Origin: a virus
Virus record (IMG/VR): IMGVR_UViG_3300031873_000003
Location: 29,791 to 93,790 of that record
Direction: 5' to 3' (one strand)
DNA length: 64,000 bases
A program made the position numbers and the translations under genes. Of the stretch, positions 6,435 to 63,966 are shown piece by piece. How positions within the stretch are numbered: the stretch's first letter is position 1; each line of letters opens with the position of its first letter. The notes below the pieces were generated by a model, which saw nothing but the letters and a program-made list of their open reading frames with translations, made no database searches and was not told the DNA's origin.

Positions 6435-7121
6435 ATGTGTGAATTAATAGTGAAGGCGGTAGATGCAACTCATCCAGACCCTGAGAAGGATAGAAGAGGA
6501 TGCTATAAAAGGGGATACCCTGTCGCAGTCTATCCTGATGGAACTAAGTGGGGAGCCTGTGAGTGTTTACCCAGGTTTGTCATTATCAAATTTCCTGGAG
6601 TTCCTGTAGATAATCCAATAGTGCAGAAATATACGAAACCTCATATTGAACCTTGTCAACAGACAAGAAGTTGGAATATTATCGAGTGGAATAGAGCTGT
6701 AGCAAGGAGTAAGTATCGGGAATTTTTATCCAAGCCTGTGGTTCTATCTACAGTGGATGAACCTTTTGAGAAAATAATTACTTTGGATCAATGGCAGGAA
6801 ATGCAGGATGAAAACGATTATTATCCATTTTTTGTAATGCCAACCATTGAAATCCTTATAGGAGAAATAACAGGAATAAAGTTGTCTGGAACTGTTCGTT
6901 TAGTTGAGCTACAGGGAGATATTAATACAACCATTATAAGGAGGCTTTGGCAAATACGTTGGGCGTCTTTGCCTCTTGTAGCAAGAAATAAGTTGGCATC
7001 GTTGGGAGAGTTAGTGATAAAGGTTGGTTTATATGGTGGCACGTATGATTACACTTGGGCACAGGTGAAAGGTTATTTCAGGAACCAGCAGACCAATCTG
7101 GATGAGACCGAGGACTTATAA
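6435..7121 (+). CDS. hypothetical virion-associated protein
   Basis: Likely start MCELIVKA after GGAG. The longer start in the ORF track lies inside the IS end. Confidence 0.6.
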   Translation: MCELIVKAVDATHPDPEKDRRGCYKRGYPVAVYPDGTKWGACECLPRFVIIKFPGVPVDNPIVQKYTKPHIEPCQQTRSWNIIEWNRAVARSKYREFLSKPVVLSTVDEPFEKIITLDQWQEMQDENDYYPFFVMPTIEILIGEITGIKLSGTVRLVELQGDINTTIIRRLWQIRWASLPLVARNKLASLGELVIKVGLYGGTYDYTWAQVKGYFRNQQTNLDETEDL

Positions 7122-10100
7122 ATGGCAACAGAAGTAACCCATATAGTTGACCCTGGAGAAGGTGCAGGACACGATTACCATTCCCTATCCTTATGGGAGG
7201 CTGGTGAAGTGGGCGACCTCACGGGCGTAAGGGATGAGATCGCTGTTGCCAAGTGCCGAGCTACAGATGGGGATGCGGATACGACTGCCGTAGTTCTTGA
7301 CGGTTGGATAACTTCCCCCACCCAGTATATCAAAATCTGGACTGATCCTGCGGAATCACATCGCCATGATGGGAAATGGAATACAAGTAAATATCGTCTA
7401 ACTGTTAGTGGTGCTTATACAATACAAAATAGTGAAAATTATACGAAAATAGATGGTATCCAATTTTCCGGGAATACGGGCGCCATATATAGGGGTTTGG
7501 CAATCGGTGCTCTTTCAAATTGTATATTAAATGGACTTAATACTAATAATCTTTCTGGTGTGTTACAAGAATCTGGAGGAGCGGTTACTTGTTGGAATGT
7601 TGTTGTTTTCAATTTGGGGACTGGTGCGAGTGGTTTTATTTCTTATACAAATGGTTCTAATTTTCGTAATTGTACTGCTTTTAATTGTGATAACGTAGGT
7701 ATCGAGAATGGTTATGCGGATGCTGTAGCAACAAATTGTGTGGCACTTACTTGTGGGTCTTGCTTTGATGGCGGTATTGTTGGAAATTATAATTGTTCCT
7801 CAGATACGACTGCTCCTGGGGCTAACTCTCTAAAAAGTAAGTCCGCAGCAAATAATTTTGTTGATATAGGTGCCGGAACAGAAGATTTGCATCTAAAACT
7901 TGGTGCAGATTGTATAGATACAGGAACTGATTTATCTGCTTATTTTACAACTGACATAGATGGTACGACCCGACCGACAGGAGCAAATACCTGGGACATC
8001 GGGGCGGATGAGTATGTAGCTGGTGCAGAATCCCTATCTCCATCTGCTAGTCCTAGTTTAAGTCCATCACCATCCTTATCTCCCAGTGCAAGTTTGTCTC
8101 CTTCCGAGTCGCCATCCCTATCCCCCAGTGCAAGCTTGTCTCCATCTGCCTCGCTTTCGTCTTCTCTTAGTCCTTCGACCTCACCGTCAAAAAGTCCATC
8201 TAAAAGTCCTTCGACCTCACCCTCCAGGAGTCCCTCCAAAAGTCCCTCCAGGAGTCCCAGCGCCAGCCCAAGCTTAAGTCCATCAGCGTCAGCGTCTCCG
8301 TCTTTATCACCATCTATTTCCCCAAGCATATCTCCTTCGGGATCTCCTTCGTTAAGTGCGAGTATAAGTCCAAGTGAGAGCCCGAGTTTGTCACCTTCGG
8401 CTTCGGTAAGCCCGTCTGTCAGTCCTTCAGTCAGTCCATCGGCATCTCCGTCAATGTCACCGAGTGTATCACCGTCGGCATCGCCTTCCGTATCGCCAAG
8501 CCTGAGTCCATCAGCTTCTATTAGCCCTTCGCTTAGTCCATCTGCGAGTCCCTCGGAGAGCCCAAGTGAATCACCGTCGTTGAGTCCTTCTGCTTCAGTT
8601 TCACCAAGCGAATTGCCATCTGTATCACCGAGTATTTCCCCTTCGGGATCACCAAGTGAAAGTCCAAGCCTGTCTCCAAGCGTAAGCCCATCGGAATCTT
8701 TTTCAGAAAGTCCCTCAGAGTCGCCATCCTTATTACCCTCGGCCTCTGTGAGTCCTTCTTTGTCCCCATCTGCAAGCGTGTCACCTTCCGAGTCACCATC
8801 GTTGAGTCCGAGCATCTCACCATCGGTATCTCCATCTGCATCCCCATCACTATCTCCATCAGCGAGTATAAGTCCGTCGGTATCTCCATCAGTTTCACCC
8901 AGCGAAAGTCCTTCATTAAGCCCATCGGCTTCCGTAAGTCCCTCGGTTTCACCTTCGTTATCACCTTCTATCAGTCCAAGCATTAGTCCAAGTCTATCAC
9001 CATCCGTTAGCCCAAGCAAAAGTCCTTCATTAAGCCCCAGCGCTTCACTATCTCCAAGTGTTTCACCAAGCGTCTCTCCATCAGTGAGTCCCAGTATTAG
9101 TCCTTCGGTAAGCCCCTCATTGTCTCCAAGTGCTTCGGTTTCACCGAGTATCAGTCCATCTCTATCGCCGAGCATAAGTCCGAGTGTTAGCCCAAGTGTT
9201 TCACCCAGTATATCACCGTCAATAAGCCCATCTGAATCACCATCGTTTTCTCCGTCAGTTTCGCCATCTGTATCGCCAAGCGTAAGTCCTTCAATCAGTC
9301 CAAGTTTATCACCGTCCCTGAGCCCATCAGTTTCACCATCGGTAAGTCCATCAATCAGTCCATCGGCGTCACCGTCCATGAGTCCGTCTTTAAGCCCCAG
9401 TGCTTCTGTCTCTCCATCAATGTCTCCCTCGGCTTCTCCGAGTTTATCTCCTTCTATTTCGCCATCGGTATCGCCAAGCGTAAGTCCTTCAATCAGTCCA
9501 TCGGTTAGCCCGTCTGTAAGTCCGAGCATTAGTCCATCATTAAGTCCCAGTTTAAGTCCTTCAAAGAGTCCAAGTTTAAGTCCCAGTGCATCATTAAGTC
9601 CCAGTTTAAGTCCGTCTTTATCACCTTCCGAGAGCCCTTCACTTTTACCATCGGCTTCGCTCTCCCCGAGCTTGTCACCGAGCGCCAGCCCAAGCGTATC
9701 ACCATCGGAATCTCCGAGCTTATCGCCCTCGGCTTCGGTAAGTCCTTCCATAAGCCCGAGTTTGTCGGCTTCTGAATCTCCCTCGGTATCCCCAAGCTTT
9801 AGTCCGAGTGAATCACCATCCCTGAGTCCATCCGTTAGTCTTTCAATCTCTCCGTCGATCAGCCCCTCGGTTAGTCCGAGCAAATCACCTTCGGTTTCAC
9901 CCTCTGAGAGTCCGAGTTTAAGTCCTTCCATTAGTCCATCTCTCAGCCCTTCAGCGAGCGTTTCACCATCGATTAGTCCATCCCTCTCCTTAAGTGAGTC
10001 ACCATCGGTAAGCTATAGCCTATCGCCCAGCGCAAGTCCGTCCCTTAGCCCATCGATCTCACCCTCGGAGAGTGCAAGCTTAAGTCCAAGTATCAGTCCT

Positions 10101-10230: not shown

Positions 10231-10932
10231 ATGTATGAACTAAAAACCAATACAGCAGTAAGAATACCGGTTGGGCCATTCGTTGACCCTACAGACGGTA
10301 AAACCGCAGAGACATCATTAGTTGTGACTGATATATCTGTCCAGCTTTATCAAACCAAGACAGACGGTACAGCCGTTGTTCGTGCTCAATTCGCCCCTAC
10401 CTCCTCTGGTGGTAATAATGACATGGCCTTAGTTGCAAGTTCAACCGACGGAATGTACGACTTGGAGTTGACGGCCAATCAACTTAATTGGCTTGGGAAT
10501 GGTCGAATCACGTTCTACGATATTGATGGAGCCTTGGTTCACTGGATAGATGTCCAAGTTGTAAATGCTGATTATTTTAATGGTAAGTATGGAACGTCGG
10601 GGGATATTTGGTCAAAGGTTTTACCTGGAACCTATGGAGCAACCGAGGCAGGACATATTTTGGCTGATATAAAAACAAAAACAGATACTATTGGGGGAGC
10701 GGGAGCCCTTGCCTGGACATACACTCTAACGGACGAAGGTACGGGAGACCCCATCGATGGCGCAGAGGTCTGGATAACCACGGATTCATTAGGATCAAAT
10801 ATTGTTGCGTCAGGGGTAACAAATACCTTTGGGGTCGTAAACTTTACATTGGATGCAGGAAGTTACTTTGTTTGGAGGAAAAAGGCAGGATGGAATTTTA
10901 GTCCAGAGCCGGATACCGAAATAGTTTCTTAA
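10231..10932 (+). CDS. putative virion protein with C-terminal Ig/carboxypeptidase-regulatory-like domain
   Basis: GDPIDGAEVWIT...GVTNTFGVVNFTLDAGSY pattern. Confidence 0.55.
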   Translation: MYELKTNTAVRIPVGPFVDPTDGKTAETSLVVTDISVQLYQTKTDGTAVVRAQFAPTSSGGNNDMALVASSTDGMYDLELTANQLNWLGNGRITFYDIDGALVHWIDVQVVNADYFNGKYGTSGDIWSKVLPGTYGATEAGHILADIKTKTDTIGGAGALAWTYTLTDEGTGDPIDGAEVWITTDSLGSNIVASGVTNTFGVVNFTLDAGSYFVWRKKAGWNFSPEPDTEIVS

Positions 10933-16782: not shown

Positions 16783-17339
16783 AAGCAACAGACATACCTG
16801 GATGGATGGACGAAAAAGAGATTGAGTGGCTCGCAGAACAGGCCAAGCACCACAATCTTATCGTTGAAATCGGAACGTGGCTTGGAAGGTCTGCCTATGC
16901 GATGGGAGAAGTAACGCCAGGAAAAATTATCACTATTGATAGTTTTAAGATGGAGGGTGTTCCTCCGAAAAGGTGGCCAACGGCAATAGAGGCACACAAG
17001 GAAATGGAAACCGATCCGGATTGGATTTATCGCCGTTGCCTGGATAACCTTGATGAACTTATAACAAGCGGAAAGGTAGAGGTTATTCGGGGAGATAGCC
17101 TTAAGGTTATCAAGGATTTGGATGGTATAAAAGGTCAGGTGGACATGGTATTTATTGATGGAAGTCATGATTATGTTTCTGTTCAAGAGGATATCTATAA
17201 ATATCGGCCTTTACTAAAAAAGGGTGGGTTACTGTGCGGGCACGACTTGGCTCACCAGGTAAAAAAGGCGGTTAGTCGCTTAGTTCCTGACTATAAGTTA
17301 GTTGCAGGAACTTTGATCTGGGCAGCAATAGAGAGTTAA
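16779..17339 (+). CDS. class I SAM-dependent methyltransferase (Methyltransf_24-like)
   Basis: VEIGTWLGRS, FIDGSHDY, GGLLCGHD. Confidence 0.85.
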   Translation: MKATDIPGWMDEKEIEWLAEQAKHHNLIVEIGTWLGRSAYAMGEVTPGKIITIDSFKMEGVPPKRWPTAIEAHKEMETDPDWIYRRCLDNLDELITSGKVEVIRGDSLKVIKDLDGIKGQVDMVFIDGSHDYVSVQEDIYKYRPLLKKGGLLCGHDLAHQVKKAVSRLVPDYKLVAGTLIWAAIES

Positions 17340-56424: not shown

Positions 56425-57605
56425 TCATACATAAAAACCTCCGTAATTATAAAACCTATCTATGTTTTCTATTCTGACAGTTCTGTTCTTTCCCTGATAA
56501 TCATTATAAGCAACTCTTGTTCCTAAATTCTGACATCCTTTAGAAACGAATGGTTGACCATCTATATAAATCAAATCCTTATTTTGAACCTTGTATTTTT
56601 GTTTTCTTATGGAAGGCTTAAAACCTATCCTGTTTAACTGTAAGGCTCTATTATTTCTTCTTTTTTGTGTCCACCTTACTTCTTTACATCTTTCTTGAAC
56701 TGTTCCGTTACCTATTACAAAAGCATCATTAGTATGAGATTTTTCAAGGTTTAGTTCGTTTCTTTTTACTTTAGTTTCATATCCATAAGTTACTGCTGTT
56801 GGATACAATTCCTGTGTTCTTCGGACTACTTCTTTCCTGATTATATTCATCATTGTTGCATCTTTGTATTGCTTATTTTTTGTCAAAAGATGATGCAAGT
56901 TCTTTTTATGTAGTCTTTCATGACATTTCTCATGTAAAAGAGCTAAATTATCAGGTTTATCAGTTCCTTTAGGTTTTGGAATTATATGATGCAATCTAAA
57001 ACCATTACCTTTACTTGATTCCTTGCCGCATAGCTGGCATTTTCCATGTTCTCTTGTTGTCACATAAGCCTTTACATTTTCATAACCATAAAGAATTCCT
57101 TGTTGATATTCTTTTCCCGATATTTCCGGATTTAAAATTTTCTGAATATCAAACTTTCCCGATTCCACACAAACTCTTGATACAGGAACATATTTAGAAA
57201 TCTTATCAAGAATCCCTATATGAGAATCAATCTTATGCTGTACTGATGGAGCAAATATGAATCCTTTTCTGTTGTCGAATCTTGGTTCTCTGTACCATAA
57301 TCTGTTTCTTCTATTTCTTCGATACATAGCTCTTTCTTCAATCTTGTCACTTACATCGGTTCTTAATTTTACTTCAATTCTTACTATTTCTCTCTTTTCC
57401 GTTCTTACTGATACACCTGCATATTCGTAGCCTGTATCTAAACTAAAAATAATCTCTTGTGTCTTTTCTTCACAGCTAAAATTAAGCTGGATAACAAACG
57501 GAAATCTTTTAATTACTGTAGCCTTACCCGATTTTACCATACGTTTGCTCTTAGCATAAGAACAAGGCATCAAAGGTTTACCTTCCTTTGAAAGGACAAG
57601 TACAA
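56425..57605 (-). CDS. iscB: IscB RNA-guided nuclease; true start near VLVLSKEGKPLMP, not 57780
   Basis: PLMP motif, RuvC-I LDTG, RRNRR bridge helix, RuvC-II E, HNH (HHII..N..H), RuvC-III HTNDA. Confidence 0.92.
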
Positions 57606-57865
57606 GTGCTTGTATTGAGCGTCCTACTTGTTGGACTTGATTCTCTTCGGGATTGATTAATACTGGCTGTATGCTCTTATCACTAAGAATTTCTTCTTTG
57701 TTTAGACAAGAACTCTCAGAGCAGAGAACTAGAGAAGTATTCTCTGGTGAATTCTTTAGCCTTATATTAATCTTCTGCATAGTTTCCTAAGCTCCCTAAT
57801 CAACTCTTTTCATCGTTGTACGTCACCGTACAAGCCCCTTGGTCTTTAGCCAAGGGGTAGTTGAC
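57606..57865 (-). ncRNA. IscB omega-RNA scaffold
   Basis: Structured region between the element end and the PLMP motif. Confidence 0.7.
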
Positions 57866-58166: not shown

Positions 58167-58458
58167 TTACTCTCCCTTATTCTCTCTTAAACATTTAGGA
58201 CAATATAAACAATCCTCAAACTTTGCCAATGGTAACATCTCTCCGCATCCGTCGCACCCCTGTTCTCGATAATTATCTGTGCCGCAGCACTCAGTCTCGA
58301 CTCTCCAGTCGATCACCCCCCCGAAATCGTCCCCGAACGAGTAATCGACGGCCTCAAGTTGGGTAGGTGCAAAGTGATCCAAACAGATCACTATTTTCCC
58401 AGCCTGGTCTTGTGCTGTCTTTTTCGATCCTCTATAAACTGTGCCGACCGCTACCATG
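58167..58458 (-). CDS. zinc-binding hypothetical protein
   Basis: GGAGG RBS; CDGC, CPKC. Confidence 0.5.
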
Positions 58459-58683
58459 TTTTTCCTCTGCCTCCTCCAAAAAAAACGCATCAAATGGGAT
58501 GTTGTGTGCATTCACTATTTTTAAGAGACTTGACACAGTTGGAACCTGTGCGCCGCCTTCCCATTGCTGGACAAGTTGTTTTGAAACCGTTACCATCCCG
58601 CACAGGGATAGCGCAAACTGTTCTAGGGTTAGGGATCGAGCCAATCGGATTCTCCGTATGGAACCTGGATCAAATTTTATCAT
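58432..58683 (-). CDS. XRE-family HTH regulator
   Basis: IRRIRLARSLTLEQFA..VSKQLVQQWEGG..P. Confidence 0.8.
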   Translation of the reverse strand: MIKFDPGSIRRIRLARSLTLEQFALSLCGMVTVSKQLVQQWEGGAQVPTVSSLLKIVNAHNIPFDAFFLEEAEEKHGSGRHSL

Positions 58684-58832
58684 TCAAGCCCCCGGCCAGT
58701 TATTTCTTTGTAATGGAACAACTCTTTTTGGATTTCCTTTGCCAGATTGTAAGCCTCTTTTGCTGTAAGAATATCGTCCACCGTAACATTGATCCCTTCC
58801 TCTGTTGCCCAAACTACGAATTTTTTAGGCAT
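58680..58832 (-). CDS. hypothetical protein
   Basis: AGGAG RBS before MPKKFVV. Confidence 0.4.
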   Translation of the reverse strand: MPKKFVVWATEEGINVTVDDILTAKEAYNLAKEIQKELFHYKEITGRGLE

Positions 58833-59609: not shown

Positions 59610-59683
59610 AATTCCTCCAGGCGGATTCTGTAAAAATCGACTATAAGCCGTGCTATACAGAATTTTTTCTGTATAATCAATTG

Positions 59684-60196
59684 TTATACAGCACGGGAAA
59701 TAACGGCAGATGAAGTCAGATGATGCCTCATCCGTGCCCCCAAAATCCTATCAGCATATTTTTCCAGCGTGCGACTATGCTGTTGACACGCCACATGGTT
59801 AAAATCTTTTCCGTCGGTGTGGATACGAAAATAACAGCGGCGAGACTTACAGAAAAGACATTGGTTATTAAAACGTATAACAACCGCATCGACCCGATGC
59901 GGAATAGACTTTTGCTTTTTCATATTACCTCCTTGCCCGCACAGGTCATGCGGAATGTTGGCGGTATCGGTGAACGGCCTGTCCACGCTCGGCCGTTGCG
60001 GTTGCAGCGGGTGGTTGAACGTCAGCACGCTCCACCACATCCGCCCGGTCAGCAGGACGCGCAGCCGTTCTCGCCACGTCAGCGCCCAGCAGGAAATCAC
60101 CATGCCGTCTTCCGTCTTGTGGACCGGCAGGGGCAGGTATTCCGGCTGGTCCTTCGCGTACACGCAGTTCTGTTCTGGGAACTCAATCGGTTTCAT
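59684..60196 (-). CDS. two cassette genes fused in frame through an attC site (second start at 59923)
   Basis: GGAGG RBS before both 60196 and 59923. Confidence 0.6.
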   Translation of the reverse strand: MKPIEFPEQNCVYAKDQPEYLPLPVHKTEDGMVISCWALTWRERLRVLLTGRMWWSVLTFNHPLQPQRPSVDRPFTDTANIPHDLCGQGGNMKKQKSIPHRVDAVVIRFNNQCLFCKSRRCYFRIHTDGKDFNHVACQQHSRTLEKYADRILGARMRHHLTSSAVISRAV

Positions 60197-60295
60197 TCTT
60201 CAACCTCCGTTGTTCTGTTTTCAACCCCGGTTGATGGCACCCGCCAACAACCGAATGCAGGCTACTCCGCTTCGCTCCGAGCCTGATTCGGAGCG

Positions 60296-60559
60296 TTATA
60301 CGGAAACATTAATTGGCGTTATCGCCAGCCCAACGTGGTTTTGCTGTAACCCCGAAAAGTCAGACATAACGTAGTTGATCCGATATTCGGGTATTGGAGA
60401 AGTTATTTTGTAGGCATCGTAGTCCCCATCCTCTATGGGAAGAAATCTAATTGTATCGCCTACTTGGAAATCACGGTCGTTTTTCCGGATCTCAAAGGTT
60501 TTCCCCCCTTCGAGAATGTGGCATAAATAACATTGTTTTATTTTTAGTTGATGCAGCAT
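60296..60559 (-). CDS. DUF3850 / ASCH-like protein
   Basis: HQLKI..G.KTFEIRKNDRDFQVGD. Confidence 0.8.
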   Translation of the reverse strand: MLHQLKIKQCYLCHILEGGKTFEIRKNDRDFQVGDTIRFLPIEDGDYDAYKITSPIPEYRINYVMSDFSGLQQNHVGLAITPINVSV

Positions 60560-60635
60560 ATGTACCTCCAATATAATTAAGAAAATGGATAACAAGTCAC
60601 TCCAGCGGACGGTCAAGGCGCCGCTGACCTCTACG

Positions 60636-60833
60636 TTATCTCCATACAATTCCAGTTCCACAACAGGTTCGACATGTTTCAAATTCTATTGTTGAGCTTG
60701 CCCATTGACCGGTAACTTGGGAATAAAACCCTTGTGACACTAATCCATTGCCCGAACATATCGGACAACGATGAGGCATTTCAGAAATAACCACCGGCTG
60801 CACTTGAGCCGGAATAGCTCTTTTAGATTTCAT
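60636..60833 (-). CDS. small DnaJ-type zinc-finger protein
   Basis: CPICSGNG..CRTCCGTG. Confidence 0.65.
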   Translation of the reverse strand: MKSKRAIPAQVQPVVISEMPHRCPICSGNGLVSQGFYSQVTGQWASSTIEFETCRTCCGTGIVWR

Positions 60834-60930
60834 GTTTTCTCCTTGTCCGGCAACGGTGTCGTATCACCAGCTATACAGATGTTTAGTATTGCTATACGGA
60901 TGAAATAGGTTCGGTGGAATCACATACGGC

Positions 60931-61128
60931 CTATTTCTGGTCATGTTCAGTTATCGGCCACCGGTACGGCCCATGAGTGATCGTAGCCCCGAGAATCCCC
61001 TTCTTGTGACCGAGCTTCGCCGTTTTCCACACCGGACCGCTTGGAGTTTGCACAATAGAGGAGACAGTGCATCTCTTGTGACGGTTTCTTGCCTCTCGCT
61101 CACGTTTCCCGGCTCGGTTTGCACTCAT
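60931..61128 (-). CDS. small basic hypothetical protein
   Basis: 65-aa ORF within the array. Confidence 0.4.
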   Translation of the reverse strand: MSANRAGKREREARNRHKRCTVSSIVQTPSGPVWKTAKLGHKKGILGATITHGPYRWPITEHDQK

Positions 61129-61229
61129 GTTTTAGCGGGTTACCTCATATACCTACTAATGACCAATTCCGTATAACAAGTCATTCGACCGGATGCCCAA
61201 AAGCGCCGGTCAATTCAATCGTTCTTTTA

Positions 61230-61352
61230 CGGTGGTCGGATGCTATCCCGACTGAGTGCTGCCGATTCTACGGCTCGTTTGCTCATCAGCAATAGTTATT
61301 CGGTTGAGCTTGCCCGAAAGGACTATGCGTGTCTGCTTTCCACGCCGCACCG
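61230..61352 (-). ncRNA. tRNA-like structured RNA filling an ORF-less cassette
   Basis: Closing stem CGGTG/CACCG; D-arm-like GCGTG-GAAAGCAGA-CACGC; T-arm-like GTCGG-GATAGCAT-CCGAC. Confidence 0.5.
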
Positions 61353-61404
61353 TAAAAGAACAAATCACTAGAGCCGAACTGTAACCAGTCGGCTCACTTC
61401 TGCG

Positions 61405-61611
61405 TTATCCTGCGCCCAATATGGCCTTTACTTTCGGCCCCCATTTCTGCATTACATCAAAACACTCAGACCCGAATGTGTGCGGGTCCTCTCCGTATAG
61501 CCTCAACGCCATAACCATAGCATCGGCTTCAAGTTCTCGAACATCAGAAACAAGATAAAATTCCTCTTCGACATTACTGCTCCCCGGCAACTTACGAATA
61601 TGAACATCCAT
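61405..61611 (-). CDS. cassette hypothetical protein
   Basis: GGAGGAG RBS; stop codon lies in the attC core. Confidence 0.55.
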   Translation of the reverse strand: MDVHIRKLPGSSNVEEEFYLVSDVRELEADAMVMALRLYGEDPHTFGSECFDVMQKWGPKVKAILGAG

Positions 61612-61684
61612 TTCACTCCTCCTCATAATGATGCGGATAACCGTTCACTCCAGCGGACGCCCAGGAGCGCCGCTGACCTCTGCG

Positions 61685-62182
61685 TTAGACGGTTTTCAAT
61701 ATAAGAGTGCATTCACCATGATACCATTTGCTAAAATGAAACGTTCCTACGGAAAACCCGAACGGGAACCCCACAATACTTCCAGATCCGTAGACCACCA
61801 AACCCCTTATCCCTCCATAATCGTTTATCATTTTCATAATTTTCTGTCGTTGAAATACCTTATTTGTCGGAAGGATGTAAGCTATCTCCGTAGCCAACTC
61901 GAAATTATGTTGCAACCAAAGCTCAAAACAAGAATAAGGAGGGTTTCCGATAATCCAATCAACTTTTTTATCGTAGTCAAAGAAGTTTCTACCAGCTTCA
62001 ATTTCGCACCAATCGGAGCCTTCAGGCAGGTGTCGATAAAATGCCCCATCGCCTCGACAAGGATCAAGGCAAAGACCGGATGGCTGTAACCATTGAATGA
62101 TCTCCTGTGCAACATTGTCTGGTGTGTAAACAATGTCTTTCTCAAGCGGTGGTCTCTCTATGAGTTCTAATTGATGAATCAT
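61685..62182 (-). CDS. N6-adenine DNA methyltransferase-like protein
   Basis: YTP, LDPCRGDG, IIGNPPYS. Confidence 0.8.
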   Translation of the reverse strand: MIHQLELIERPPLEKDIVYTPDNVAQEIIQWLQPSGLCLDPCRGDGAFYRHLPEGSDWCEIEAGRNFFDYDKKVDWIIGNPPYSCFELWLQHNFELATEIAYILPTNKVFQRQKIMKMINDYGGIRGLVVYGSGSIVGFPFGFSVGTFHFSKWYHGECTLILKTV

Positions 62183-62250
62183 AAAAAATAGCGTCTAACA
62201 AGGCGCTCCACCGGATTGCCAATAAACCTGGCAACCGGTGAGCTTAGTCG

Positions 62251-62490
62251 TTATGCGACTTCAATTGGCTCTGGGACTGGAAATGCTACAAATTTCGATG
62301 AAATCCCATGTCCACAAACTACTTCATATACTCTTGTTTCACCCTTCATTTTTGTCAGTGAACTGCAAACAATCAAGGTTCCTTCTCCTCCTTCTACTCC
62401 TTGAATACGCCATGGAACTATATATTCTTTTCCATTACAATCACAACCCGTTTTCTTACAAATACTGCATCGTGTTATTCGCTCTCTCAT
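62251..62490 (-). CDS. cassette hypothetical protein
   Basis: GGAGG RBS; stop codon lies in the attC core. Confidence 0.55.
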   Translation of the reverse strand: MRERITRCSICKKTGCDCNGKEYIVPWRIQGVEGGEGTLIVCSSLTKMKGETRVYEVVCGHGISSKFVAFPVPEPIEVA

Positions 62491-62571
62491 CTTTCACCTC
62501 CAATTATAAATTAGAAAATCGCATAACAAATCATTCGACCGGACGCTCAAGGGCGCCGGTCAACTTAGTCG

Positions 62572-62748
62572 TTATGCTTCTTCCCAAACCACCCTACCGT
62601 CAAAACTACCGTCTTTGTGTAATCTGATCACAGTTACGGAAACCCCGATATCCATATCATCACAGAAAACATCTATGACTTGGCCAATCTTTAGGTTCTC
62701 TGGCATCCCTTTATCTACCAATTCACATAAAAACATCTCGCTAATCAT
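62572..62748 (-). CDS. cassette hypothetical protein (58 aa, not in the ORF track)
   Basis: AAGGA RBS; MISEMFLCEL...VVWEEA*; stop codon lies in the attC core. Confidence 0.55.
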   Translation of the reverse strand: MISEMFLCELVDKGMPENLKIGQVIDVFCDDMDIGVSVTVIRLHKDGSFDGRVVWEEA

Positions 62749-62817
62749 AACAAAATCCTTAATTTACAGCATAACCAATCACTCCAGCGGACGGTCAAGG
62801 CGCCGCTTAGTTTTACG

Positions 62818-63135
62818 TTATACCCCAACAAAATCCTCACACGTGTCAGCCCTATCAAAAACTTTTCGATGTGCTAGTTTTAGTTTTTCCCAGAAAGTTT
62901 TCCTACCAAATTCGTTTTTTTCCTGGGCTGTTACAAATTCTTGAGGATAGATAGAAAAAATATGCTCTCCCCCTTTTTCCAATATCCAATGTCCCATAGG
63001 ATTCCCAGACTGATCAACCCCTGGATTACACCGGATAGTGTTTTTGGAAATATTCACCTTGCAATGTAAACAATCCTTACATGATTTGAACCTCCCCACG
63101 GCTAAAGCCGGGGGATTCCTGTTAATTAAGGACAT
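62818..63135 (-). CDS. Cys-containing hypothetical protein; N-terminus supplied by the IS right end
   Basis: CKDCLHC; stop codon lies in the attC core. Confidence 0.45.
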   Translation of the reverse strand: MSLINRNPPALAVGRFKSCKDCLHCKVNISKNTIRCNPGVDQSGNPMGHWILEKGGEHIFSIYPQEFVTAQEKNEFGRKTFWEKLKLAHRKVFDRADTCEDFVGV

Positions 63136-63966
63136 TGCTGACCTCCTTGTGGCTCGTTCCAAGCCCGAAATTAAGAATTACTTGGGCAGCATTAATGTCT
63201 CTGTCCAAGATGGAGCCACACTCCTTACATTCCCAATTTCGTACCTTAAGCCCACTCAATCCTGTAGGTCCAGTTAAGTTACTTGTTCTCATTGTTTCCT
63301 GCTAAAGCATGGACCATGCCGTCTATCAGTGCTTGTAATTCGCACAATGTAGCGGTTCCCTTCATGCGATTAGCACGATGGCTGAGAACCCATACATTGC
63401 CTTTTACATACCCCTTTGTAGGGATTATCCTGTCCAAAGACGGACTGTTCGGGGAAGGTTTATTTTTTCCTACAATAAGAGGCAAACGAAGAACGGGGCA
63501 CATTGTGGGAATAACTATGTCCGAAACAGACAAGTCAAAGGGCAAGTGCAATTCTCTTGCTCTGCGTCTTGCATGTTTCCACAATCCATATTCTGGCGTT
63601 CCACACTTGCCGTGTAAAGTAACTCTCGTTTTGAATTTCTCGTGACTCATACAGCCACAACTCAGAGTTGCCTTTCTGCGTAGGTTGCCGCCAGAAGTCC
63701 TAGTTTCTTTTCCACAATCGCAACGACACCGCCAACGAGCTTGACCATCGGACAAATTCATATCACGGGCTAAGACGACAAGACGCCCAAACCGCTGACC
63801 CGTCAAATCTTTCAGACTACTCATATTGCGTTTTTCCTCCGTCCCTAGCATTGAGTTCGATTTTCCTCAAGCCCCAGTTGTAGATAGATGCCAAGTGGAC
63901 AAGCCAACGAGACAGGTCAACTTCTTGTCCCTTGGTCAGCTTGAGTTTGAGGGTTCGGACGATCAC
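63086..63966 (-). pseudogene. tnpB: tnpB remnant: N-terminal (63817..63966) and C-terminal (63122..63277) fragments plus IS right end, flanking an HNH gene
   Basis: VIVRTLKLKLTKGQE..WL..L.SIYNWGLRKIEL and LTGPTGLSGLKVRNWECKECGSILDRDINAAQVIL; right end GGAATCCCCCGGCTTTAGCCGTGGGGAGGTTCAA. Confidence 0.8.
63279..63824 (-). CDS. HNH-type homing endonuclease
   Basis: DLTGQRFGRLVV..WRCRCDCG..SCGC; SLDRIIPTKGYVKGNVWVLSHRANRMKG. Confidence 0.85.
   Translation of the reverse strand: MSSLKDLTGQRFGRLVVLARDMNLSDGQARWRCRCDCGKETRTSGGNLRRKATLSCGCMSHEKFKTRVTLHGKCGTPEYGLWKHARRRARELHLPFDLSVSDIVIPTMCPVLRLPLIVGKNKPSPNSPSLDRIIPTKGYVKGNVWVLSHRANRMKGTATLCELQALIDGMVHALAGNNENK

Follow-up and report, generated by a model that had tools for sequence, protein, structure and literature searches.

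A probable integron-type cassette array without an integrase, and with its genes inverted relative to attC, in an uncultured tailed phage

Clusters of attC sites lacking an integron integrase (CALINs) are known from phages. Qi et al. (2023; PMC9892861) found 17 of them in 10,705 phage genomes, virulent phages included and with methyltransferases among the cargo, and described the layout of the phage arrays as the typical bacterial structure; phage attC sites were substrates of IntI1 and recombined with attI1. The integron integrase, IntI, also uses genomic GWT sites, in double-stranded form, for cassette insertion (10.1101/2022.09.11.507474). Here we describe an array of this kind in an uncultured phage represented by a 93,790-bp IMG/VR virus record (IMGVR_UViG_3300031873_000003; CheckV completeness 100%), of which bases 29791-93790 were analyzed as one 64,000-nucleotide stretch (the window; positions are those of the window unless given as genome positions). 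The record is a linear metagenome contig. The first 56 kb of the window carried structural genes on the + strand, including a match to the capsid family PF25209 and a tape-measure-like protein, and all plausible genes from 56.4 kb on were on the - strand. Between 59683 and 62823, single small genes alternated with short imperfect palindromes whose ends read xxxxAAC ... GTTxxxx (Table 1), so that about eight small accessory genes are held in cassette form by a phage without an integrase. Phage CALINs are already known; the systematic inversion seen here is not described in PMC9892861.

A covariance model (R1) that includes two bulges and the R, L and inner stems was made from an alignment of 73 bacterial attC sites (A2). 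It matched seven sites in 60587-62823, all on the + strand, with scores of 22.8-54.9 bits (E 6.5e-13 to 1.7e-3), and gave no - strand match in the window at E<=10. The 5'-AAC and GTT-3' triplets of the R'' and R' heptamers were invariant in eight aligned window sites and in all 73 bacterial sites. The sites had imperfect L''/L' repeats, extrahelical bases on one arm 6 bp apart, and unpaired spacers of about 5 nt; their DNA folds had z scores of -1.8 to -4.7, and a bulged T was visible in the folds of the - strand. With seven to eight sites within 2.6 kb and no match to TIGR02249 or PF00589 in 93,790 bp, the locus has the composition of a CALIN. The motif inside three of the sites (ACTCCAGCGGACG, 6-10 nt, CGCCGCT) was present in 15 other viral contigs and in over 120 bacterial loci, from genomes and metagenome-assembled genomes (MAGs) of many phyla; 10 of these bacterial loci had an IntI1 homologue (33-55% identity) within 8 kb. 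In sequence and predicted structure, the eight window hairpins are homologous to a widespread class of bacterial attC sites.

An initial sequence-only reading of the window had proposed about ten attC-like sites, with paired GTT and AAC core heptamers opening and closing the cassettes. The 14 heptamers it listed all lay exactly where it had placed them, and a model of bacterial attC sites, the check it had suggested, did match the sites. Seven of the sites are firm and one, at 60242-60301, is probable (DNA fold -12.6 kcal/mol, z -2.3, with one bulged extra base on the 5' arm); one or two others are doubtful. The site at 59875-59963 is atypical, with spacers of 2-3 nt and a 48-nt loop that holds the ribosome-binding site (RBS) and start codon of the gene at 59684-59923, and the stretch 60834-60930 contained no recognisable site and had no R1 support. 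A profile search (nhmmer with A2) recovered four of the seven sites and was less sensitive than the covariance model. R1 gave no match in phage TJE1, whose attC sites are divergent, so the model is family-specific and unfit for surveying other attC families. A plain scan of window and genome for AAC...GTT hairpins was dropped as unspecific, and an Rfam match to snR46 at 63396-63591, below the gathering score, was regarded as chance.

Table 1. Junction element, attC sites and genes of the cassette array, in window coordinates (a slash in a core marks the crossover point).
Feature	Position	Strand	Remarks
Left boundary, 43-nt palindrome-containing junction element	59642-59689	+	CCGTGCTATACAGAATTTTTTCTGTATAATCAATT; ends in core G/TTATAC at 59683
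Open frame, 170 aa	59684-60196	-	Maybe two genes, starts at 60196 and 59923 (AAGGAGG); no family match
attC-like site, doubtful	59875-59963	+	GTATAAC ... GTTGGCG; exact cores chain-paired with 59683 and 60242; no R1 match at E<=10
attC, probable, divergent	60242-60301	+	CGCCAAC ... GTTATAC; AAC/GTT cores, 4-5 nt spacers; missed by R1
DUF3850/ASCH-like cassette gene, 87 aa	60296-60559	-	PF12961 E 1.2e-18; phrog_986 E 2.2e-19; RBS GGAGG; TAA is TTA of core 60295
attC	60587-60641	+	R1 53.7 bits, E 1.5e-12
Cassette gene, 65 aa	60636-60833	-	Weak CxxCxGxG-like match; stop in core 60635
Small gene, 65 aa	60931-61128	-	No family
attC	61171-61227	+	R1 42.8 bits, E 2.3e-9; own R boxes unpaired (GTATAAC vs GTTCTTT); fold is inner stem only
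183-bp cassette	61222-61404		No convincing gene, only a 41-aa GTG frame
attC, weakest R1 match	61355-61410	+	22.8 bits, E 1.7e-3; fold z -3.5
Cassette gene, 68 aa	61405-61611	-	No family; stop in core 61404
attC	61635-61690	+	R1 50.1 bits, E 1.6e-11; interior 33/33 identical to Syntrophales MAG site
DNA methyltransferase-like cassette gene, 165 aa	61685-62182	-	phrog_799 E 1.2e-25; weak N6_Mtase; stop in core 61684
attC	62193-62256	+	R1 46 bits, E 2.6e-10; fold z -4.2
Cassette gene, 79 aa	62251-62490	-	No family
attC, best R1 match	62521-62577	+	54.9 bits, E 6.5e-13; fold z -4.7
Cassette gene, 58 aa	62572-62748	-	No family; stop in core 62571
attC, last detected	62769-62823	+	R1 47.7 bits, E 8.3e-11
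Gene, 105 aa	62818-63135	-	Stop in core 62817

On the + strand, the AAC-side arm of the sites, ACT-C-CAGCGG-A-CG, pairs with CG-CCGCTG-A.., leaving C and A as extra bases 6 bp apart. Extrahelical bases lie on the AAC arm in the top strand of attC and opposite AAC in the bottom strand, where they are usually G and T, with a 6-bp stem separating the first from the last (PMC5027507). Because the extra bases share an arm with AAC on the + strand, the + strand is the top strand. In plasmid R100, the aadA1 attC directly follows aadA1 on the coding strand and has an AAC arm of the same build (GTT-C-AAGCCG-A-CG), and in 7 of the 10 bacterial loci the IntI homologue is upstream of, and divergent from, the motif strand, which is the canonical geometry. 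The extra bases, the homology to the aadA1 attC, the position of intI in bacteria and the crossover positions in related phages (see below) all place the top strand on +. The strand that recombines, the bottom strand with its extra G and T opposite AAC, is therefore the coding strand of the phage. GC skew and top- versus bottom-strand folding energies agreed weakly with this polarity, and were given no weight as they are confounded by a region-wide strand bias. The polarity matches that of the sequence-only reading, which had put the top strand on +, and R1 also places it opposite to the genes.

All genes of the array are accordingly on the bottom strand of attC, and each site is upstream of its gene; the usual cassette layout, an open reading frame (ORF) on the top strand upstream of attC, was not found. 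An ORF on the top strand is typical of cassettes and is not part of the definition of attC or of CALIN. Every plausible ORF was on the - strand, as had been read from the sequence, and the stop codon, said to be usually inside the R' core, was found there at six of the seven firm sites as well as at 60295 and 59683, the TAA of the gene being the complement of TTA in G/TTA. In gene sense, each unit consists of a GTTAxxx box, a leader of 9-31 nt with an RBS, the ORF, and TAA inside xxxTAAC. The units therefore look deceptively canonical when read along the genes, and only the interior of the site is flipped.

The inversion was common to this phage and 15 other viral contigs that carry this attC class. 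Orientation was scored as a forward ORF of >=50 aa ending at R'' or a reverse ORF ending at R'. Bacterial sites of the class were forward-only in 37 cases, reverse-only in 5, both in 9 and neither in 29; for the viral sites found by R1 the figures were 2 forward-only, 36 reverse-only, 2 both and 8 neither. TAA was exactly at G/TTA in 27 of 40 viral sites, and the forward stop of bacterial sites was most often TAA inside xxxTAAC (15/46). A site in a Syntrophales MAG (L036), whose interior is identical to window 61647-61679 in 33 of 33 positions, is preceded, at 13 nt, by a forward ORF of 160 aa and has an IntI homologue 4.5 kb away, and a near-identical site in a Smithella MAG (L063) likewise directly follows a forward ORF. 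Two further R1 matches in the phage record, at genome positions 16951 and 18590, are on the - strand where genes are on +, so that polarity tracks the direction of the genes and not the axis of the genome. The first of them (16951-17009) adjoins an AT-rich, membrane-like 64-aa gene between GTTAGAA and TTCTAAC (genome 17021-17215); a hairpin at genome 17210 had no R1 match. Among 80 viral contigs that encode IntI homologues, most matches were canonical in their geometry relative to intI; ORF orientation there was 12 forward, 8 reverse, 8 both and 17 none, in GC-rich DNA in which spurious ORFs abound.

In an array made by IntI, the variable (last six) bases of R' come from the following cassette, with whose R'' they pair. 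This signature was found in the viral arrays, where R' of one site was perfectly complementary to R'' of the next in 21 of 30 neighbouring pairs (four variable positions), against 9% of random pairs; a site's own two boxes paired perfectly in only 3 of 46. Five of the six consecutive pairs in the window were perfect (chain 61171->61355->61635->62193->62521->62769), and the own outer boxes could not pair in four of the eight window hairpins. Such pairing across genes argues strongly for units that were once circular, and against a role as RNA hairpins. Pairs of GTTNNNN and its reverse complement 100-700 nt apart were also about five times as dense in the array as in the rest of the window (13 in 3.3 kb versus 2.6 per 3.3 kb).

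Turnover of cassettes was visible among closely related phage genomes. The contigs behind loci L141, L009, L142 and L143 have backbones that are 99.8-99.9% identical over 6-9.5 kb, and between the same flanks they differ in their cassettes, with two in one contig and at least six units in another. Similarity starts at GTTA beside unrelated left flanks for four units, one of whose left neighbours is without any attC, and ends at GTTA for two. Gain, loss and replacement of cassettes thus break at G/TT in six of eight junctions, the test that had been proposed for the array, and all six map to the top strand's R' end, where cleavage of the bottom strand would put them. In one cassette (c92), present in two contexts, the attC interior was retained and showed a compensatory change in the stem. 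In the relatives of the phage studied here, L139/L015, L225, L224 and L226, a neighbouring 121-aa flank gene is shared with it (78-88% identity), and past the junction element every cassette differs.

Some variation at and around the sites does not fall under these junctions. The closest relative, L225, has additional small genes and two attC sites (locus coordinates 6841-6922 and 7233-7288) beyond the 121-aa gene, on its other side, so the variable zone is wider than the array in the window; on the same side, this phage has different genes and no detectable site (58369-58829), with a breakpoint at 58368/58369 inside a gene. L007 (13089-13170) and L009 (reverse, 6469-6550), with backbones 99.8% identical, differ in four of the five bases of an attC spacer (CAGAC versus AAGGC) in an otherwise identical site, which was read as a mutation or conversion hotspot. 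In L142 (reverse, about 10645-10662), an R''-like and an R' box are 2 nt apart (CATGAAC-AC-GTTATCT), as if the attC interior had been deleted.

Taken together, these results suggest, with a probability of roughly 70% for the explanation as a whole, that the segment at 59.7-62.8 kb of the window, in the accessory-gene region of a tailed phage, is truly a cassette array of the integron type, has no integrase of its own, and is acted on by a host IntI. The sequence-only reading had noted the absence of intI from the window, and extension of the search to the whole 93,790-bp record also found none: there was no match to TIGR02249, PF00589, PF00239 or PF01797, that is, to an integron integrase, another tyrosine recombinase, a serine recombinase or an HUH transposase. 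A complete integron, with intI, attI and the cassette promoter (Pc) beside the array, is accordingly not present. Five other attC-bearing viral contigs (48-66 kb) also lacked PF00589 matches. As the record holds no recombinase, a host IntI acting in trans on the phage sites is the most economical reading and our best inference. It agrees with the published activity of IntI1 on phage attC sites (PMC9892861) and with the insertion of cassettes by IntI at genomic GWT sites (10.1101/2022.09.11.507474). Loan of a host integrase fits the occurrence of the same attC class beside IntI homologues in MAGs and the 33-nt Syntrophales identity. Readings as repetitive extragenic palindromes with a RAYT or IS200/IS605-type transposase, and as serine-recombinase sites, were rejected, because no HUH Y1 transposase (PF01797) and no PF00239 match, respectively, occurred in the record.

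Several points weigh against this explanation. No recombination event, circular cassette or integrase has been observed at these sites, and the link to a Syntrophales host rests on the one 33-nt identity. R1 is not independent of the family, its sites having been chosen with a motif from this phage, and two proposed sites (59875-59963 and 60834-60930) are without its support. Some units are bounded not by attC but by a promoter-like element ending in GTTA. Finally, two of the eight junctions lie inside a site: versions of the a2 attC diverge after L'', and a terminal hybrid site is broken within L'. A pure G/TT crossover does not yield such junctions, which point to homologous recombination or gene conversion, so that exchange between conserved arms also occurs.

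These internal junctions raise the question of whether the attC-derived repeats are now only short homologous linkers, at which homologous recombination of phage or host shuffles the genes with no integrase, as in the promoter early stem-loops (PeSLs) of T4-type phages. An identical 13-mer and an identical 9-mer in the arms of many sites would offer the homology, promoter-like junction elements are duplicated around one unit, and PeSL-mediated shuffling is documented (PMC2839356). Homologous exchange, however, would not explain six GTTA junctions with non-homologous flanks, one of them without attC on one side, and it neither needs nor maintains variable R-box bases that pair across a gene (21/30) and not within the hairpin. 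The geometry of the extra bases and their 6-bp spacing are also conserved. We consider linkers alone an unlikely account of the array.

The same R-box pattern bears on the view that the hairpins are RNA elements of an operon transcript, serving in processing, attenuation or translation coupling, with an incidental likeness to attC. They lie between co-oriented genes, would be transcribed, and have an RBS and start codon within 9-31 nt. The outer stem is nevertheless unpaired in its own hairpin at half of the window sites, perfect pairing of own boxes is rare, and the interiors are identical to bacterial attC sites beside intI. A reading as terminators was rejected because none of the attC sites was called one; they also lack a U tract, and no Rfam family matches them. 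A primary role in RNA is therefore very improbable.

An equally slight chance is given to a misassigned polarity, in which - would be the true top strand and the array an ordinary, canonical one. The canonical appearance of the units in gene sense (GTTAxxx, leader, ORF, TAA in xxxTAAC, palindrome) is what this would predict, and a crossover at the R'' end would fit two of the junctions. Against it, R1 scores the + strand only, the extra bases are on the AAC arm of +, bacterial sites of the same sequence follow forward ORFs downstream of a divergent intI, and the + strand has six junctions at its R' end. That the array derives from a bacterial integron by misassembly or a mis-called provirus boundary is hardly credible, in spite of the linear contig and a window that ends 1.2 kb past the last site, given 56 kb of co-linear phage genes on its left, the completeness of a record without integrase, the recurrence of the same junction of flank and array in independent contigs, and further sites 70 kb away in the same record.

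The left boundary of the array is a junction element (Table 1) with a 9-bp inverted repeat (TATACAGAA TTTT TTCTGTATA) and a TATAAT box. It is common to L139/L015, L225, L224 and L226, 95-98% conserved in L139/L015, L225 and L226, and forms a conserved island between DNA that varies on both sides; homology stops at GTTA. If + is the top strand, its position is that of attI, and it may be a recombination site that resembles attI or carries a promoter. A half-copy recurs inside the array of L225, and in the L013 lineage (L007/L013) an analogous element, 'TTGTTAATCAATGGTTA', bounds a mobile gene and is duplicated around it.

The cargo had been described from the sequence as DUF3850, methylase and zinc-finger proteins. 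The first two were recovered as DUF3850-like and methyltransferase-like genes, and the zinc fingers amounted to weak or visual CxxC patterns. The seven other small cassette proteins were assigned to no family, and the 79-aa protein had a single relative, 85% identical, among 5.8 billion clusters. At the left end, the 170-aa frame runs unbroken through the core GTTGGCG at 59957 into a gene with its own AAGGAGG and ATG at 59923, since that core has no TTA and hence no stop in frame; it may represent two cassette ORFs fused in frame. The stop of the gene at 59684-59923 is the TTA of the core at 59683. At 60778-60844, the RBS region and first codons of a 65-aa gene are 89-91% identical to stretches of L011 and L001, and the remainder of the gene is not, so the start region may be a 5' module common to them. 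Two unrelated cassettes resemble each other in the leader between R'' box and start codon, ATTTTCT(T)AATT(T)ATA(A)TTGGAGGT (60564-60586 and 62491-62520), and L002 has the same module of leader plus attC; attC and translation leader may travel together as one 5' module.

No attC was detected past the gene at 62818-63135. Beyond it, at 63122-63292, a 56-aa protein matches the Cas12f1-like TNB zinc ribbon (PF07282, E 1.4e-7); the TAA of its gene is in a GTTAATT box, and the gene adjoins a short GC hairpin at 63092-63120. The accessory region is bracketed by an RRXRR+HNH endonuclease (451 aa, 56425-57780) and an HNH/endonuclease VII-like protein (190 aa, 63279-63851), and contains an Xre-type helix-turn-helix protein at 58432-58683.

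We propose that IntI would be made during infection of an integron-bearing host, for which Syntrophales/Smithella-like bacteria are a lead, and would excise and insert units through recombination of attC with either another attC or GTT, with short-homology recombination between conserved arms as a further means of exchange. The array might then be a plug-in bay that takes up accessory genes, the orphan methyltransferase and the DUF3850 protein being examples. As the bottom strand is the coding strand, the mobile unit in gene sense runs from attC interior through GTTAxxx, a short leader with RBS and the ORF to TAA. Crossover would take place directly after the stop codon (TAA/C = G/TTA), the mirror image of a bacterial cassette, in which attC follows the gene.

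Why the units are inverted can be answered only speculatively. TAAC at the end of a gene presents a harmless GTTA target on the opposite strand, and attC sites may land there, after phage stop codons and in antisense; the odds are somewhat against this being the reason. A phage gene excised between two such sites would become a mirror cassette, and the gene-less 183-bp cassette could be the remnant of such a landing or excision event. Alternatively, selection may favor mutual silence of phage and bacterial cassettes, or the bottom strand may be exposed as the non-template strand during transcription. A broader and still tentative idea, which we doubt more than we believe, is that phages keep their own pool of mirror-image cassettes, with a recombinogenic coding strand, attC upstream and crossover at the stop codon, and that new ones are born where TAA is followed by C (GTTA). 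If true, mirror cassettes would use the IntI of the host and yet be silent in bacterial integrons, as bacterial cassettes would be in the phage; a single recombination machinery would be common to two gene pools that do not mix functionally, and the unsolved question of cassette birth would gain a concrete, testable route.

The orientation of cassettes is central to integrons, the purpose of strand selection by IntI being the correct placement of promoterless genes behind Pc. A large family of phage arrays with near-identical attC and every gene reversed implies a second gene pool, organised differently, that is served by the same machinery. The array would explain how virulent phages without an integrase swap accessory, probably counter-defence, genes at the resolution of single genes. 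It predicts mutual silence of phage cassettes in bacterial integrons and of bacterial cassettes in phages. Units in which attC precedes the gene and crossover falls at the stop codon are natural material for studies of cassette origin, and integron annotation pipelines that assume ORF and attC on one strand will misdescribe them.

The array resembles the phage CALINs of PMC9892861 in its attC cluster without intI, its AAC/GTT cores, and its small, mostly unknown genes with orphan DNA methyltransferases. It differs from them in that attC precedes the gene and the stop codon is at the crossover. Phage TJE1 of the same study is canonical, with published bottom strands on - (polarity taken from the primer sequences) and genes on +, whereas here the bottom strand carries the genes; the literature searched contained no account of inverted phage arrays. 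The chromosomal integrons of Syntrophales (L036), Smithella (L063) and Gammaproteobacteria (L074/L032) have the same arms (ACTCCAGCGGACG ... CGCCGCTGA), extra bases and spacers as the phage sites, but they have an IntI homologue within 8 kb, ORFs on the top strand, and TAA in R'' (15/46) and not in R'. Sedentary chromosomal integrons also hold some cassettes antisense to attC, for example the toxin-antitoxin cassettes of the Vibrio cholerae array. These are a scattered minority in canonical arrays and have their own promoters. Here, in contrast, inversion extends over the entire array and over the phage-array family as a whole, in the same orientation as phage transcription. The PeSL cassettes of T4-type phages are similar in that short repeated stem-loops flank small novel ORFs in hyperplastic regions, with modular gain and loss (PMC2839356, PMC4122927). 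Promoter-like sites were not enriched here (6 versus 6.7 expected) and terminators were not called at attC sites. PeSLs are promoter-terminator motifs exchanged by homologous recombination (PMC2839356, PMC4122927), whereas the elements described here are homologues of attC whose R boxes are paired across genes.

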